From the IMG/VR virus record IMGVR_UViG_3300034198_015569, positions 24,428-88,427 of that record: DNA of 64,000 nucleotides; one strand, given 5' to 3'. Source of the DNA: a virus. Below the pieces are notes generated by a model that worked only from the letters and a program-made list of their open reading frames with translations, was not told where the DNA came from and searched no databases. The stretch's first letter is position 1; every line of letters starts with the position of its first letter. Of the stretch, positions 732-46,332 are shown piece by piece. Made by a program: the position numbers and the translations under genes.

Positions 732-1017
732 ACACCATAAGTTGGAAATATGCAATTATAATGGAGAAATTAGTTCATTATATTTGAATGATTATAGAAT
801 TTCTGGCCCGAAGCCTTACGGTGGTGGAATTATTGTTAAGAATTTCAAAGTTACAAATAAAGATTTACTTAGTTCAATTCCTGAATACCAAAAAGTTTTA
901 GATGTTTTAAAAATGGCCTTGAAGGAACACGATTATAAGTGTACAATGCAAGTCACTTTTACAGAACCTCAATGGGTTCATGAAGCACGGGCCATTATTA
1001 AAGAAATCGAGGATTGA
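715..1017 (+). CDS. hypothetical protein
   Basis: Likely start MSKKNK at 715; overlaps neighbours in operon fashion. Confidence 0.55.
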   Translation: MSKKNKHHKLEICNYNGEISSLYLNDYRISGPKPYGGGIIVKNFKVTNKDLLSSIPEYQKVLDVLKMALKEHDYKCTMQVTFTEPQWVHEARAIIKEIED

Positions 1018-2114
1018 ATATGGGCAAAGAAAAGATTAAGTCCTACGAAGATGCAGTAATGGCTTATGTGATCAAGAATCATGGTGAAGCTCTGGCTAGC
1101 TGCATCCAAGACCCTGTGTATCATGCTGAAGGTAGCGTGTGGACGCATACGGTTCGTGTTTTGGAAGAAGTAAAGAAAATCTCTTCTCCTTCTGAAATGG
1201 AAACAATGGCTGTTGCTGCAATTCTTCATGATATTGCTAAGCCCGGCACTCGTGAAGAATACTTTGACGAATCTATGGGTAGGGTTCGTGTGAGCCACAA
1301 GCATCATGCCAAGCTTGGTGCCATCGATGCATGGAACATCATGTGGAAGCTCGGCCTGCCTCTCCAGATGCGTCTTGACGTGTACGCAATTATCCTCTGG
1401 CATCAAAAGGTTTTCCATACTTTCTATAAGAAGAAAGAAAAGATGGAAGAGGAGTTTGTTCGCTTCTCCATCATTGGTAATTGGGATCAACTGATTCGCT
1501 TTGCGCTGGCTGACACTCGTGGTCGAGACAATGTGAATAATGATGATACTGAAGATACCCTTGCGGCTTTGACTGAAGCTGTGAAGGAATTTGGTGTGTT
1601 TGATTATTCATATCCTTTCGAAACGCCAAATCATCGAATCACGGCTCTTGAAAGCAAGAATCGCTTTTATGTGCCCATCGATCCTCCTGGCGGTGTGATG
1701 CATATCATGAGCGGTCCTCCCGGTTCTGGTAAGGATACTTTTATCGAAAAGAATCTTCCTTATCCTGTTGTGTCTTTGGATTCTGTTCGTGGCGAGCTTG
1801 GTATTAAGCCTGATGGAAATCAGGGAAGGGTTATTCAGGAAGCACAAAAGCGTGTGAAGGAATATCTCGCCGCAAAGGAAACCTTTGTTCTTAATATCAC
1901 TGGCCTGCGTAAGGAGACCCGTGACAAGTGGACAACCCTTGCTCGTGATTATCATGCGTTCATTTCTTTTCATTGTATGAATACACCTTATGACAAGGCT
2001 GTAATTCAGAATACAAATCGAAAAGATTCTGTACCGCAGAATGCATGGGATAAGATGGTTTCTAAGTGGGAGCCTGTCACTCTGGAGGAAGGACATTTTG
2101 TTGAGTGGGTGTAA
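1014..2114 (+). CDS. HD-domain phosphoesterase fused to P-loop polynucleotide kinase (HD-Pnk-like RNA end-healing enzyme)
   Basis: HAEGSVWTHT...LHDIAKP HD motifs; C-terminal GPPGSGKDT Walker A and SLDSVR. Confidence 0.85.
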   Translation: MNMGKEKIKSYEDAVMAYVIKNHGEALASCIQDPVYHAEGSVWTHTVRVLEEVKKISSPSEMETMAVAAILHDIAKPGTREEYFDESMGRVRVSHKHHAKLGAIDAWNIMWKLGLPLQMRLDVYAIILWHQKVFHTFYKKKEKMEEEFVRFSIIGNWDQLIRFALADTRGRDNVNNDDTEDTLAALTEAVKEFGVFDYSYPFETPNHRITALESKNRFYVPIDPPGGVMHIMSGPPGSGKDTFIEKNLPYPVVSLDSVRGELGIKPDGNQGRVIQEAQKRVKEYLAAKETFVLNITGLRKETRDKWTTLARDYHAFISFHCMNTPYDKAVIQNTNRKDSVPQNAWDKMVSKWEPVTLEEGHFVEWV

Positions 2115-5020: not shown

Positions 5021-5138
5021 AAAATTTTCAAAAAGGTAGTTGACGAAAAAATAAAATCTGCTACATTACGAATATAGAGTGGTTGCCGGGAAGACCGGAT
5101 TAAATGAAGGAAACTTCGGCCACGGCTATCAAAAACAT

Positions 5139-5212
5139 CCTGTGGTCGTCTAATTGCGCAAGGACACCTCTGCGGAGTCGGAGGAAATGGCGGTTCGCGA
5201 CCGTCACACAGG
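5139..5212 (+). ncRNA. tRNA-like element (no CCA, 8-nt anticodon-position loop)
   Basis: CCTGTG/CACAGG acceptor, GTC/GAC D stem, CCTCT/GGAGG stem, GGCGG-TTCGCGA-CCGTC T arm. Confidence 0.5.
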
Positions 5213-5647
5213 TAGCTGTTTGATAAATGAATATAACAAAATCTAAAGTTTAGTCGAGTGCTTCTTGCGCCTAAAGCAGAAATGCCATGGGGAAGCCAAA
5301 AGAAATCCGGCTTGGGATTCGACTAATTCAATTGGTGAAATGAAGGTGAGCGGAACCTATAAGTCTCATAAATCTGGCCAGATGCCTTCATGTAGCCAAG
5401 TAAAGGGAAGCGCCTCTCCCTTGAAAATCATAAAGCGATAGAGTCCAGAATCGTAAGAAACTGGCAACTACTTTGCCACCGTTTAGACGGTTGGGGGAAG
5501 ATTAAAAAATGCCCTTAAAAATGGTGGAGCTATTTTACAATGATACGAAATTGGCCGGGCCTGAAGTGCTTCATTCTAGATTAAGGTTTGAATAGTTCTA
5601 GACTGGTTATTAACAGGTTCGATTCCTGTTACAGGGATTAATTCTTG

Positions 5648-5789
5648 AAACTATTTAAGTGGGCGGTTTGTTTATTATAGGAAAAATAAGCTCATATACA
5701 GCGGTAACTGTCATACATGAGCAAATATTTCGCCTTTACCGAGGAAACAGGGATAATACCCTGGAATGAACCGCCCACTTAAATAGTTT
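5648..5789 (+). ncRNA. structured RNA closed by perfect 21-bp inverted repeat
   Basis: AAACTATTTAAGTGGGCGGTT (5648-5668) / AACCGCCCACTTAAATAGTTT (5769-5789). Confidence 0.5.
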
Positions 5790-6017
5790 ATATGAATTGG
5801 GTAGTGATAAACGAAGAACAAGTAAAGGGATAGGCCATTTCTTGAACGAGGCTTCGGGCAGTAATTTAAGTAAAATTATGAAACCATGGATAACATAATT
5901 TGAAAGAATTATTGGGTTAACACGACTGGTCTGCCGACCGGAGAAATGTAGGTATAAGTCCTACCCCAATACGATTTTTATAAAGTTCGATACATCTCAA
6001 TTAATAAAGGAAAATAT

Positions 6018-6272
6018 ATGTCGCTTAAACCATTAAATGATCGTGTAATTGTTGAACGAATTGATACGGTTACAAGAACTCCTGGCGGGCTTTTAATTCC
6101 AGAGACTGCACAAGAAAAGCCTGTATTGGGAAATGTTGTTGCAACTTCAAATTCTTCTGTTAACATCAATGATATTGTTTTATTTGGTCGCCATGCAGGT
6201 ATTGAAGTTAAAGATGATGGAAAGACTTTGTTAATTCTTAAAGTTGAAGAACTCTTAGCAATTAAGAATTAA
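6018..6272 (+). CDS. groES: co-chaperonin GroES
   Basis: LKPLNDRVIV...TPGGLLIPETAQEKP, GDxVLF-like signature. Confidence 0.9.
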   Translation: MSLKPLNDRVIVERIDTVTRTPGGLLIPETAQEKPVLGNVVATSNSSVNINDIVLFGRHAGIEVKDDGKTLLILKVEELLAIKN

Positions 6273-6416
6273 TTTAAATGGTTAATATTTTATCTCGGAG
6301 AAAATAAAAATTTTGAGCTTATTTCAATATCAGACTGAAGAAAGTTGGTAAGGGCGCACCCTGTCTTTATGATATGTTAGACTCCCTATATTATTTTTAT
6401 TATGAAAGGAAATATT

Positions 6417-6725
6417 ATGCCTTGTTCTGATGCCGGTTTTGAACACTATGATAATATGGTTTTAAATGAAAAGATTAATACTTTGACTGAATTGCTTTGT
6501 GAAGCATCACACATTCTTTCAGAGAATGAACTTATGAATATTGCCAGCAATGATCTGAATAATTGGTGGAAACACCATGAAGCGGAAGATCGCAAGAGAC
6601 GGCAGAAGGAATCTGAACAGCGAGAACTTCGTCGCATCGCTGAAGAAGCCATGCGAAATCTGTCCCCTGCACAGAAGGAAGCGCTTGGTCAATTTTATGG
6701 CTTGAAGGCCAAGCTAATTCGTTAA
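6417..6725 (+). CDS. hypothetical protein
   Basis: AAGGA RBS before MPCSD. Confidence 0.6.
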   Translation: MPCSDAGFEHYDNMVLNEKINTLTELLCEASHILSENELMNIASNDLNNWWKHHEAEDRKRRQKESEQRELRRIAEEAMRNLSPAQKEALGQFYGLKAKLIR

Positions 6726-6803
6726 ATAAAGCTTAGGAGGGGGTTTAATCGGCAGTCTATTATCTTTGGATAATCAGCAACGGATTCCCCTCCTTTCGAT
6801 AAT

Positions 6804-6976
6804 GTCTCTATGGCGGAATGGTAGACGCACCTTCTATACAAGGAGGCGGTGGGTAATAGAACAAGGATACTTGTTTGAACCAAGAGTAATGGATATATTG
6901 GTTAGTGGCGCCACTAGTCCAATTGAAGACGACTCAAGACCCATCATCCGTGGTTCAAAACCCGGTAGAGACACCA
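6804..6976 (+). tRNA. atypical tRNA-like RNA with ~100-nt variable arm (loop TATACAA, TAC at anticodon position)
   Basis: GTCTCTA/TAGAGAC-ACCA acceptor, Leu-type D arm GCGGAATGGTAGACGC, CCTTC/GGAGG stem, T-arm-like GGTTCAAAACC. Confidence 0.65.
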
Positions 6977-6999
6977 CCAAAAATTAAATAGGAAATATC

Positions 7000-7329
7000 A
7001 TGGATTATATGTTAGCTCATGAATTTGAGAAACTGTCTAAAAATAAACTATCTAATGAAAAGTCTAAAGAATTAATTTGGAATAACAAAGATATTGATAT
7101 TGATTATCTTTATCCTAAGATAGTTTGTTGTGTCAATCGTCTTATTTCCAAAAAAACTCTAAACACTGAAGATTTGCGTTATTGGCACAGATTACTTTTG
7201 GATATCGCTGCTTATAAGAAAGATACGCCGTATTCTGAAAGATTTTTAGGTATAGCAGATTTGATCAGAACCCAAGTGTATTTTCGTGAAATTAAATACG
7301 AAAATAAAATGGATAATTTTTCAAAATAA
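7000..7329 (+). CDS. hypothetical protein
   Basis: AGGA RBS. Confidence 0.55.
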   Translation: MDYMLAHEFEKLSKNKLSNEKSKELIWNNKDIDIDYLYPKIVCCVNRLISKKTLNTEDLRYWHRLLLDIAAYKKDTPYSERFLGIADLIRTQVYFREIKYENKMDNFSK

Positions 7330-7341
7330 TAAGATTTATGT

Positions 7342-7812
7342 ATGAATGATTTTAATCTTCAAGTCTTACGCACTATAGATAAGTACGATAAGATTGGGGC
7401 TGATGGAGTGTTTAGACTTCTTACGGATGGAATGAAAGATAAAGAATCCGGTGCTTATATTCCTGGGGTTGGATTAGATAAAGTAAATGCTACTTTACTT
7501 GTTGAGTTTATACAAACCACTGGTAATTCTAATGAAGAAACATTAGAAAACATGGAAAAGTGGTTTTCAAAAGCCGCTAAGATAAAAAATCGAATTGATT
7601 TAATGATCCTTATGGAAGAAACTGTAATAGACTCTAAGGGAACCACTTTGTGGGATATTTTAATTCATATGTCTCAAAATGAAAATGAAACTTGGGAAAA
7701 CGGTGGTAGACCTAAAAATATTGCTTGGGCATTAGATGACATTTTAGAATCTGACATGAACTATATACAGTTTTTAAATAAACCCCCATCCATAGGCATA
7801 GAAAATGATTGA
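7342..7812 (+). CDS. protein resembling the insertion domain of alphaproteobacterial HisRS
   Basis: VLRTIDKYDKIGADGVFRLL...G.GL recalls the HisRS LRAIDKLDK.G..GV segment (from memory). Confidence 0.5.
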   Translation: MNDFNLQVLRTIDKYDKIGADGVFRLLTDGMKDKESGAYIPGVGLDKVNATLLVEFIQTTGNSNEETLENMEKWFSKAAKIKNRIDLMILMEETVIDSKGTTLWDILIHMSQNENETWENGGRPKNIAWALDDILESDMNYIQFLNKPPSIGIEND

Positions 7813-8359
7813 TTATAAACTCCTTCACGAATCTATTCTTCACTATGAAGAAGCCGGGTTTCGACGTATTGAAGCTCCCTGGCTTGTATCAGAAGCTATC
7901 AATGATATTACTTGTCCTGCATGGGCAGGAAAATATCATGTCATTAAAGGCGACAAGAAAAAGACCTTTGTGGCGAGTGGAGAACAGTCATTTCTTTATT
8001 TAATTAATAAGGGATTTCTACCAACTTCCGGTAAATACCAGACGATTACTCCTTGTATGCGTAATGATGATTTTGATACAACGCATACTAAATATTTTAT
8101 TAAAAATGAATTGATTTCATATGGACCATATGTATCCGAAAAGCATGTTGAGCCTATCATGACAGATGCTCTTGAATTCTTTTCAAAATATGTGATTAAG
8201 AATTTTATTAAGATAGTAAAGACAGCCGAAGGGTTCGATCTTGAATACCGAGGGGTGGAGATTGGTTCCTATGGATATAGAGAATGCTTATTCACCAAAT
8301 GGATTTACGCAACCGGCTTGGCAGAACCAAGATTTTCTCGTATGATATATGGAAATTGA
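7805..8359 (+). CDS. minimal class II aminoacyl-tRNA synthetase-like catalytic domain
   Basis: Motif1-like GFRRIEAPW, motif2-like TPCMRND..YFIKNEL, motif3-like EIGSYG...TGLAEPR. Confidence 0.65.
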   Translation: MIDYKLLHESILHYEEAGFRRIEAPWLVSEAINDITCPAWAGKYHVIKGDKKKTFVASGEQSFLYLINKGFLPTSGKYQTITPCMRNDDFDTTHTKYFIKNELISYGPYVSEKHVEPIMTDALEFFSKYVIKNFIKIVKTAEGFDLEYRGVEIGSYGYRECLFTKWIYATGLAEPRFSRMIYGN

Positions 8360-11697: not shown

Positions 11698-11790
11698 GGC
11701 TGCGGGTGTAGGACACGGGAGGTGCTTATAACACCTTATAGTCCGCAGATAACGGATTCCAACTAGGATCGATACCTAGCGCAGTCACCA
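11698..11790 (+). tRNA. tRNA-Ile(TAT), atypical (short D arm, long variable arm)
   Basis: GGCTGCG/CGCAGTC-ACCA; AGGTG-CTTATAA-CACCT; CTAGG-ATCGATA-CCTAG. Confidence 0.75.
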
Positions 11791-12533: not shown

Positions 12534-12611
12534 GCCTCTGTAGTCCAATTGGCAGGAGACAGCACCCTCAAAACGTGTACAGTATCGGTTCGAATCCGAT
12601 TGGAGGCACCA
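12534..12611 (+). tRNA. tRNA-Leu(CAA), short variable arm
   Basis: Cloverleaf, loop CTCAAAA, TTCGAAT, CCA. Confidence 0.85.
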
Positions 12612-12616
12612 AATTA

Positions 12617-12693
12617 GCGCATATAGTCCAACGGCAGGAGACAAGGCACTTAAAATGCCTACAGTGTTGGTTCGAATCCAACTATGCGCACCA
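12617..12693 (+). tRNA. tRNA-Leu(TAA), short variable arm
   Basis: AGGCA-CTTAAAA-TGCCT, CCA. Confidence 0.9.
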
Positions 12694-12816: not shown

Positions 12817-12891
12817 GCGGTTGTAGCTCAATGGTAGAGCAGGGCCTTCTAAACGCCATGGTAGTGGGTTCGAATCCCACCTACCGCACCA
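12817..12891 (+). tRNA. tRNA with CTA in anticodon register (possible amber suppressor; weak anticodon stem)
   Basis: 75-nt cloverleaf; loop TTCTAAA in canonical register, only 3 of 5 stem pairs. Confidence 0.55.
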
Positions 12892-45147: not shown

Positions 45148-46332
45148 ATGAGCAAGTTTGAAGTTCCTGTTGTACGTGTATCTAAAGTAACTGACCACGA
45201 AAATGCGGATAGACTTTCACTCGTTTACTTTAATGGTTTCATTACCATTTCAGCCAAGCTAGATGATGGTTCCCATCGTTATAAGGTTGGCGATCTAGTC
45301 GTTTATGTTCCAGAAGGCGCAATCGTTCCTGAATATCTTCTTCGTCAGGGATTTTGGGATTCTGAAAAAGAAAAAGGAATTCTTGCTGGCACCAAGGGAA
45401 ACCGTGTCAAGGCAAAATCGCTTAGAGGTGTCATTTCTCAGGGAATTATGTTTCCTGTAGAATATTCAAAGAAGTTTGAAGGGGATGAAGGTATTCCGAC
45501 TGTATTCAATGATACTGATGGTACCTTGATCGTGTGTGAAGGCACGAACGTTGCTGAATTTCTCGGTATCCAGAAATGGGAACCTGAAATTCCAACTAAC
45601 TTTGCTGGCGACGTGATTAATGTTGGAACCCACAATACTGTGGATTTTGATATTGAAAACCTTCAGAAGTATCCTGACACATTCCTGGCAACAGACGATG
45701 TTGTTGTAACCGAAAAGCTTCATGGAACCTGTGCTATCTATGGATGGCTTGGTGATTTTGATGACGCTGATCTATATAAGAACAATATGTATTCTTCTTC
45801 AAAGGGAATGGCTAGTAAGGGACTTGTTTTCAAGTTTAACCAGTCAAATCAGGAGCGTAATCTTTATACCCGTATGGGTGTAGAGCTTAAGATTTTTGAC
45901 CAGTTGGAATTGATTGTTGAAGTTCTAAAGAAGAAGTATACTGTCATCAATAAGGTTGTTCTTCTCGGGGAAATCTTCGGTAGAGGTGTGCAGGACTTGC
46001 ACTATGGTCTCGGCAAGCCTTCATTTCGTGCCTTTGAAATCTTTGTTGATGCTGAAACAGCAGGAGGCGAGCGTTTCATTGGTTGGGTTGATAACTATAA
46101 ATATGAACTAATGTTCTTTGGTGACATTGATCCAGTTCCTATTCTATATCGTGGTAAGTTTGATCTTACTAAGATGGAAGAACTTCGCACTGGAGAAGCT
46201 TCTATTGGCGGCGGACATGTCAAGGAAGGTGTTGTTATTACACGCTTCAATGATGATGGAACCCGCACCATTATGAAGTTCATCAATCCTTCGTATTTGA
46301 CACGTAAGGGTGAAGTAACCGAATTCAATTAA
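45148..46332 (+). CDS. RNA ligase, DRB0094 family
   Basis: N-terminal OB HENADRL...RGVISQG; TEKLHGT, GEIFG.G.Q, EGVV. Confidence 0.85.
   Translation: MSKFEVPVVRVSKVTDHENADRLSLVYFNGFITISAKLDDGSHRYKVGDLVVYVPEGAIVPEYLLRQGFWDSEKEKGILAGTKGNRVKAKSLRGVISQGIMFPVEYSKKFEGDEGIPTVFNDTDGTLIVCEGTNVAEFLGIQKWEPEIPTNFAGDVINVGTHNTVDFDIENLQKYPDTFLATDDVVVTEKLHGTCAIYGWLGDFDDADLYKNNMYSSSKGMASKGLVFKFNQSNQERNLYTRMGVELKIFDQLELIVEVLKKKYTVINKVVLLGEIFGRGVQDLHYGLGKPSFRAFEIFVDAETAGGERFIGWVDNYKYELMFFGDIDPVPILYRGKFDLTKMEELRTGEASIGGGHVKEGVVITRFNDDGTRTIMKFINPSYLTRKGEVTEFN

Follow-up and report, generated by a model that had tools for sequence, protein, structure and literature searches.

A tRNA-Leu-shaped element with a branched variable arm of about 100 nucleotides in the genome of a large phage

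Transfer RNAs (tRNAs) are nearly constant in size and shape, and are held so by the processing enzymes, EF-Tu and the ribosome that they share. What, then, is a phage gene in which a complete and apparently chargeable tRNA body carries a folded domain of 100 nucleotides (nt), against this constancy of size? The question is raised by a 173-nt element at positions 6804-6976 (+ strand) of the 64,000-nt stretch of DNA analysed here, hereafter the window. The window is part of an 88,427-base virus record of IMG/VR (IMGVR_UViG_3300034198_015569), whose estimated completeness of 36% (CheckV) implies a size of roughly 240 kb for this uncultured phage. An earlier, sequence-only reading had described the element as a tRNA with a giant branched variable arm, and had taken it for a chargeable scaffold bearing an extra RNA domain, with a role other than decoding. 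With moderate confidence, we regard the element as a functional, matured, non-decoding RNA derived from tRNA-Leu, in which the enlarged arm is a functional module.

A leucine-type tRNA body with an enlarged variable arm

The two ends of the element form an intact acceptor. Its 5' strand, GTCTCTA (6804-6810), makes seven of seven Watson-Crick pairs with TAGAGAC (6966-6972) in the minimum free energy (MFE) fold, and the 3' part (6966-6976) runs on through the discriminator A73 into an encoded CCA. The same stem was recovered by a scanner of our own, described below. Next come U8-G9, a leucine-type D arm (GCG/GAATGGTAGA/CGC) and A26, together at 6811-6829. The leucine type of this arm is indicated by alignments to a covariance model (see below) and by an exact match of 21 nt, covering element positions 8-28, in five cyanophage records, one of which annotates the site as tRNA-Leu. 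At the place of the anticodon arm, the sequence and the MFE fold give a hairpin, CCTTC/TATACAA/GGAGG (6830-6846; element positions 27-43). The T arm, CCG-t-GG/TTCAAAA/CCCGG (6948-6965), appears both in the fold and in the scanner output and has one bulged U in its 5' strand. This bulge is the sole addition to the anatomy given by the sequence-only reading, whose intact acceptor ending in ACCA and leucine-type D arm both stand.

Between the hairpin and the T arm lies a variable region of 101 nt (6847-6947), which the fold and the covariance alignments resolve into C44, a 98-nt domain built around a three-way junction, and an A-U that supplies U48. The domain is closed by the helix GGTGGGT/ACCCATC (6848-6854 with 6939-6945; element positions 45-51 and 136-142), exactly where the earlier reading had drawn the base of its insert of about 100 nt. 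In the fold, the first branch is a sub-hairpin, GAACAAG-GATA-CTTGTTT (6859-6876). The second branch (6884-6935) consists of a helix GAGT/ACTC, an internal loop and a long distal hairpin (6897-6923), which reads ATTGGTTAGTG-GCGC-CACTAG-t-CCAAT and whose tip is a perfect 14-nt palindrome around GGCGCC. Both sub-hairpins that had been named from the letters alone are thus present in the sequence and in the MFE fold. Two repeats were set aside. The 7-mer ACAAGGA, found at element positions 35-41 and 58-64, was taken as a chance repeat by judgement alone, and a second match to the GGCGCC palindrome elsewhere in the record also appears to be due to chance.

This architecture is more stable than expected by chance. 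The whole element reached an MFE of -55.8 kcal/mol, compared with -42.7 +/- 4.0 kcal/mol for dinucleotide shuffles (z -3.26), and the 98-nt arm alone reached -29.0 against -18.5 +/- 2.9 kcal/mol (z -3.68). In neither case did any of 200 shuffles fold as well, and these values bear out the earlier proposal that the insert is structured. The MFE fold is a cloverleaf with 49 pairs, in which all tRNA helices are unbroken and the domain forms a three-way junction, and it stays the same when 78 nt upstream and 26 nt downstream are added. Within units of 100-400 nt, our scanner requires a TTCRA-type T loop on a T stem of 5 bp, in which it tolerates one bulge, together with a 7-bp acceptor, U8 and a GG-containing D arm. 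It returned the element as the single match in the 88,427-base record, and gave a match in one of 20 shuffled records.

The position of the extra RNA was defined with a covariance model, R1, built from the element and its fold and run on 100 phage loci. The best matches are ordinary tRNA-Leu genes of 84-88 nt, headed by L102:3057-3142 with 52.8 bits. In these alignments the base of the ordinary leucine variable arm falls on the closing helix of the element's domain, and the C before the arm and the A-U before the T stem are common to both. Since R1 aligns the domain to the ordinary leucine arm, the extra RNA is an expansion of the variable arm and not an insert in the anticodon loop, in agreement with the placement proposed from the sequence.

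The element escapes standard tRNA finders. ARAGORN did not call it at normal stringency, with or without introns. None of the 12 tRNA matches that Rfam gives in the window at its gathering score (29 bits) is the element, and over positions 6700-7050 Rfam returned nothing tRNA-like even at E <= 10. When element positions 55-132 were deleted in silico, which kept the closing helix with a 6-nt loop as a remnant of the arm, ARAGORN recognised a tRNA of 95 nt under its default settings and read TAC at the anticodon place. Thus, the body is a normal cloverleaf by the rules of ARAGORN and is hidden only by the size of its arm.

A closer comparison with class II tRNA-Leu (RF00005) points in the same direction. 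The element has the 7-bp acceptor, the D, anticodon and T arms and the TTCRA T loop of a cloverleaf. It shares with tRNA-Leu the 7/5 acceptor/T branch, the 3-bp D stem and D loop, A73 and A15-U48, and its extra arm likewise begins after position 44, with two bases left between its end and the T stem. On the other hand, it departs from a decoding tRNA-Leu in having A33 instead of U33, a triplet that is not a leucine anticodon, a bulged T stem, scores below Rfam and ARAGORN detection and, above all, a branched variable region of 101 nt, compared with 16 nt in the tRNA-Leu of cyanophage S-RIM4. In this sense, the element behaves as a class II tRNA body to which a domain has been added.

Long leucine-type genes in other phages

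Long genes that carry conserved inserted domains on a leucine-type tRNA scaffold do exist in phages and are common there. We scanned IMG/VR for a leucine D arm with a T loop 95-125 nt further on and obtained at least 115 loci (L089-L203). At least 55 distinct units besides the element were left when a paired acceptor was required. Six of these were rejected, as ARAGORN splits each into two tandem tRNAs, leaving at least 49 further single units of 99-173 nt. Like the element, these units have the leucine D arm, a paired acceptor and a T arm, with an excess of 25-100 nt separating the D arm from the T arm. They differ from it in that their inserts show no sequence similarity to its own, their acceptor and T arms are different, and many carry the domain in the anticodon arm instead of the variable arm. 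In 10 of the 50 units listed, the element included, the anticodon place has a perfect local hairpin of 5 bp and the T stem begins no less than 75 nt after it. The tRNA model of Rfam detects some of the long units, and no other Rfam family accounts for them.

Several of these units fall into families by their inserts. Among the matches listed, such families comprise L113/L123/L137/L161/L168/L190, L109/L121/L125/L145/L158 and L090/L112/L122/L198, and in the listed families the inserts are better conserved than the acceptor stems. Family beta (six sequences among the matches listed) is laid out like the element, as are L181, L095 and L197, with a short element first and a long closed domain after it. 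In family beta, about 16 nt at the anticodon place are followed by a long domain with an invariant 6-bp closing helix, 4 nt and the T arm. The insert is almost invariant, one of its pairs occurring as AU (three sequences), UA (two) or GC (one), and the acceptor stem has compensatory changes at three pairs. In this family 98.9% of cells are paired, a value that none of 500 shuffles reached and that compares with 29-57% in slid controls; six related sequences make a small set, and such shuffles overstate significance under relatedness. The insert of family gamma (five sequences among the matches listed) is likewise invariant.

Further units were found in a relative of the phage and by means of a loop motif. 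The relative, G001, is 242 kb long, shares proteins of 25-59% identity with the phage and has a scrambled gene order. It carries a 104-nt unit at L018:13338-13441 (-) with a 7-bp acceptor, a leucine-type D arm, A73, CCA and a 34-nt variable region, whose loop TGTAGAG presents G33 and UAG in a 7-nt register, or 5 nt in the MFE fold. The unit lies 4 nt past an ordinary tRNA-Leu(UAA) and ahead of a terminator-like hairpin. ARAGORN did not call it, and found no other Leu(UAG) in G001. Orthology between this unit and the element is supported by neither score nor synteny, and the scores indicate no kinship beyond a common leucine origin. The two have the loop form U-R-U-A-S-A-R in common, and used as a pattern this form led to four near-identical contigs (L043, L052, L054 and L062). 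Since the motif served as the search pattern, later matches to it are not independent evidence. Each contig carries two to three leucine-scaffold units (104-105, 119 and 151 nt) between small open reading frames (ORFs); in L043 the units occupy 435-585 and 820-924, and a third D-arm site is found at 1156. All these units are near-identical in their acceptor, D and T arms and unrelated in their middles. ARAGORN calls none of them in the four contigs.

A few long genes have their extra RNA within the anticodon loop. Two IMG/VR units, L102 and L160, resemble a tRNA-Leu(UAA) whose CTT..AAAA anticodon loop encloses about 70 nt, and the two have a common core there. In addition, G001 encodes at L026:6255-6475 (+) a 221-nt tRNA-shaped gene with a 7-bp acceptor, a D arm, a T arm and A73-CCA (fold z -3.46), in which about 150 nt lie between the strands of an ACAAG/CTTGT anticodon stem; this gene may be an intron-bearing tRNA. 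Such cases, together with the frequency of introns in phage genes and the RNA-ligase-family protein encoded in the record, lend some credit to the idea that the 98-101 nt of the element are themselves an intron or a small mobile insertion, removed to yield a normal tRNA. We consider this extremely unlikely. Excision would leave the A33 loop and a variable loop of 3 nt, and therefore an intron would not rescue a decoder. Moreover, group I and group II introns are longer than the roughly 100 nt present here, and no known riboswitch, ribozyme or intron in Rfam matched the element, the last two even at E <= 10. The insert has no flanking direct repeats and no second copy in the record, and RtcB-type splicing was rejected, as no RtcB was found in G000-G003 (G000 being the present record). 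For the remaining long units, ARAGORN run with introns assigns anticodons for many amino acids that differ between close relatives, and we therefore do not take these units, in general, for intron-bearing leucine decoders.

Altogether, the element belongs to an apparently uncatalogued class of phage RNAs, within which, judging from its sequence, it is an isolated lineage. The class is not in Rfam 15. The open-access papers that we consulted describe no phage tRNA-shaped gene with an arm of this size; such genes could still appear in supplementary tRNA tables of phage surveys. Genes of this type go unannotated in phage genomes because standard tRNA finders miss them.

Function, decoding and charging

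Several results weigh against the view that the element is functional. None of the collections searched yielded a homolog of either the insert or the whole element. Megablast of positions 6000-8000 against phages gave no match, and blastn against phages matched the D arm only. Four IMG/VR scans for the element or its neighbours returned no relative of the element, and nothing like it is present in 12 related loci around a synthetase-like gene described below. Likewise, our scanner and a D-arm search found no copy in the complete G001 and G002. On metagenome contigs, pattern scans yielded only chance matches, 16 in all, and two patterns run on bacterial genomes gave 0 matches each. Compared with 163 loci, the insert gave eight weak blastn matches (E of at least 0.097) and none with nhmmer. 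R1 had 0 matches on five whole related records, a weak negative, with a prefilter that passed 0-3 candidates per record. With default filters over G001 and G002, R1 also missed the 104-nt unit of G001, which scores 25 bits with filters off, and default-filter negatives are weak for this reason.

R1 gives 36.3 bits to the ordinary tRNA-Leu of G001 and 25.0 bits to the odd 104-nt unit, and neither these scores nor the differing gene neighbourhoods support orthology of the element and this unit. Contigs from three DNA runs of one study are identical to the window across the element, with no joints and no variants there, and hence provide no informative variation. The census of long units began from a leucine D-arm pattern and is biased to that D arm. 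With no homolog of the insert found, these comparisons reveal no selection on the arm.

A decaying tRNA-Leu pseudogene, with extra sequence in the variable arm, a mutated anticodon loop and no function, would agree with the singleton status of the element. The bulged T stem and A33 would equally fit decay, as would the non-leucine triplet, and the phage has other leucine tRNAs, with anticodons CAA and TAA. Nevertheless, we regard this explanation as unlikely. The helices of body and arm are all intact, and each of the two folds better than all 200 of its shuffles. A clean three-way junction is not expected of a random insert. In addition, the element has a tRNA-like G+C content within an AT-rich genome (47%, compared with 36% for the record and 41-53% for three of the tRNAs in the window), and analogous long leucine-scaffold genes are conserved elsewhere.

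If the element is functional, does it decode? Its anticodon-place loop, TATACAA, has A as its second base, at position 33, so that the absence of U33 noted in the sequence-only reading holds. The triplet in the canonical register is UAC (positions 34-36), followed by A37, and UAC is not a leucine anticodon (NAG or YAA). A working decoder would read GUA through UAC and be charged by leucyl- or valyl-tRNA synthetase (LeuRS or ValRS), its purine at position 33 guarding against a host anticodon nuclease; the G001 unit, with UAG and G33, would be its leucine counterpart. This explanation draws on the canonical register of UAC in a 7-nt loop with A37, on the presence of UAG in the same register with G33 in G001, where ARAGORN finds no other Leu(UAG), and on the lack of a Val(UAC) tRNA in the 88-kb record, in which GUA makes up 28% of the valine codons (60 long ORFs). 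It would also agree with a study which, in its accessible part, states that phage tRNAs evade tRNA-targeting defences through anticodon-loop mutations (PMC10264068). We find a decoding role very unlikely all the same. The record is only 36% complete, and the missing Val(UAC) thus means little. U33 is nearly universal in elongator tRNAs. U32 and A38 are able to pair, and their pairing in the MFE fold shrinks the loop to 5 nt, the size that the G001 loop also has in its MFE fold. Finally, the 98-nt branched arm is, to our knowledge, about four times as long as any arm of a tRNA used by the ribosome.

Charging is easier to reconcile with the sequence. In E. coli tRNA-Leu, A73 is crucial for leucine identity, and the anticodon and the long arm are dispensable. 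Charging by the E. coli LeuRS needs A15-U48, G18G19, A20a and the pairs G18:U55, G19-C56 and U54:A58, and minimal tRNAs remain substrates even when both the anticodon arm and the long arm are missing (accessible part of PMC9976931). The element carries every one of the determinants given there, namely A73, A15-U48, G18G19, A20a and the pairs that join the D loop to the T loop. As all of them are present in its sequence, charging by LeuRS is plausible. The UAC loop and A73 also provide A35, C36 and A73, which we take to be the main marks for ValRS, and valine is therefore a candidate amino acid beside leucine. Provided that the element is functional and non-decoding, we see roughly even odds that it is aminoacylated. 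The chargeable scaffold of the sequence-only reading is accordingly upheld in part: the leucine-type body, the LeuRS determinants, the U33-less loop and the structured insert all speak for it, and the charging step itself stays plausible.

Based on these data, a course of events can be proposed for the non-decoding RNA that we favour. The element would be co-transcribed with its same-strand flanking genes and excised like the 17 ordinary tRNAs of the window, with RNase P generating the 5' end and 3' trimming stopping at the encoded CCA. The RNA would fold into the L-shape of a tRNA, with the 98-nt three-way-junction domain projecting from the variable-arm side. A33, a loop closable to 5 nt and the bulky arm would bar it from normal decoding, perhaps together with the bulged T stem, and its body, which has all the known needs of bacterial LeuRS, may be leucylated. 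The arm would then be the working part and offer a hold to a protein or RNA partner; it could, for example, tie up a tRNA-binding host factor as a decoy or sponge, or serve as the tag of an aminoacyl carrier. The palindromic GGCGCC tip could pair two copies of the RNA.

In broad terms, the element probably encodes an RNA of tRNA shape that acts away from the ribosome, and phages have many odd genes of this kind. A more specific proposal can be made only tentatively, with a chance well below even. In this proposal, the element would be a natural tRNA-scaffolded RNA, in which a leucine-accepting body serves to make, stabilise and perhaps aminoacylate the 98-nt module. It would represent one lineage of a broad phage class with interchangeable domains on leucine-type bodies, acting off the ribosome in the contest with the host, for instance as a trap for a defence or repair factor directed at tRNA, or as the carrier of an amino acid to a non-ribosomal acceptor.

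Known RNAs offer partial parallels. Allo-tRNAs and other irregular long-arm tRNAs are, like the element, non-standard tRNA-shaped RNAs with long variable arms that occur in bacteria and phages, and some have been suggested to be regulatory rather than decoding. Allo-tRNAs are defined by a Sec-like D arm and by an acceptor/T branch of 8/4 or 9/3, in contrast to the 7/5 branch and leucine D arm of the element, and their arm is called only 'long', with no mention of branching, in the accessible part of the source (PMC5389517). An allo-tRNA identity was rejected on the basis of the 7-bp acceptor and of the 5-bp T stem with one bulge. A bacterial tRNA-shaped RNA charged by LysRS is aminoacylated and thought to act outside normal decoding, as we propose here, but it has the size of an ordinary tRNA and no added domain.

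Two further systems join a tRNA-like part to another RNA module. Transfer-messenger RNA (tmRNA) is aminoacylated and couples a tRNA-like acceptor/T module to a large extra RNA domain. It has the alanine identity pair G3:U70, pseudoknots, a tag frame and no D or anticodon arms, whereas the element has U2-A71, C3-G70 and a full cloverleaf. We rejected a tmRNA, since the tmRNA search of ARAGORN finds none in the record and C3-G70 stands in place of G3:U70. YrlA, a bacterial Y RNA (RF02553), resembles the RNA proposed here in joining a tRNA-like module to a protein-binding module. YrlA is known in bacteria and some phages, and its free ends lie in the Ro-binding stem and not in an acceptor stem. 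A Ro60 handle of this kind was rejected because Rfam gave no match and TROVE was found in none of four records (G000-G003, of which G000 is 36% complete), with control genomes positive.

If made and charged, the element would be a natural counterpart of the engineered tRNA scaffold and a new kind of player in the conflict between phage and host over tRNA. Dozens of analogous genes came from a single pattern scan, which makes the question testable in cultured phages.

Genomic setting and neighbouring features

By ARAGORN, the window has 17 tRNA genes; they all lie on the + strand and are spread among small ORFs. The element lies between two same-strand ORFs, and the ATG at 7000 begins 23 nt further on. 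Just ahead of it, between the stop of the ORF at 6402-6725 and the element, there is a 60-nt hairpin at 6735-6794 (+) closed by AGGAGGGGG/CCCCTCCT. At 7805-8359 (+), 830 nt downstream of the element, a minimal class II synthetase-like protein of 184 aa is encoded. It matches phrog_4806, annotated as histidyl-tRNA synthetase (E 4.9e-36), and gives a weak match to Pfam tRNA-synt_2 (23.6 bits, under the cut-off). Relatives of this protein, with 46-57% identity, are encoded on 12 IMG/VR contigs, several of which are 186-246 kb long.

This arrangement makes a cis role for the flanking genes possible. The element could be a cis-acting tRNA-shaped structure, either marking cuts by RNase P and a 3' enzyme in a polycistronic message or serving as a tRNA mimic in the leader of the downstream operon, where the 184-aa synthetase-like protein would bind it for feedback. 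Its location between same-strand ORFs and close to the ATG, the hairpin ahead of it and the resemblance of the downstream protein to a synthetase are all in line with such a role, yet we judge it decidedly unlikely. Ordinary tRNAs of this phage also lie between ORFs, so that position says little. The 12 related loci with the synthetase-like gene have no such element nearby, and a cutting signal needs neither a 98-nt arm nor the full set of LeuRS marks. As for the small proteins that flank the element, neither has a relative in IMG/VR, and the downstream one (109 aa), on record from two contigs, matched only itself among 5.8 billion proteins.

Other genes of the record also relate to RNA. A protein with HD and AAA_33 kinase domains is encoded at 1014-2114 (+), and the RNA-ligase-family protein (PF09414, E 1.5e-14) at 45697-46284 (+) in G000, as in many large phages. 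Together, they look like the RNA-repair toolkit of large phages.

The ordinary tRNA genes of the window show peculiarities of their own. A tRNA with anticodon CTA at 12817-12891 (+), of the amber-suppressor type and labelled Pyl by ARAGORN, hints that TAG may be a sense codon in some phage genes. The tRNAs with leucine anticodons CAA and TAA (12534-12611 and 12617-12693, +) are 77-78 nt long with a short variable loop, a class I shape unlike that of bacterial tRNA-Leu. The window (11698-11790, +) and G001 (L021:8529-8620, -) have in common a tRNA of 92-93 nt whose anticodon is TAT and which combines a small D arm with a long variable arm. Finally, a relatively G+C-rich region of 900 nt at 5075-5975 (+) has no ORFs and contains several tRNA-like pieces, among them a lone T arm at about 5610-5631 and a long-insert unit at 5795-5971.

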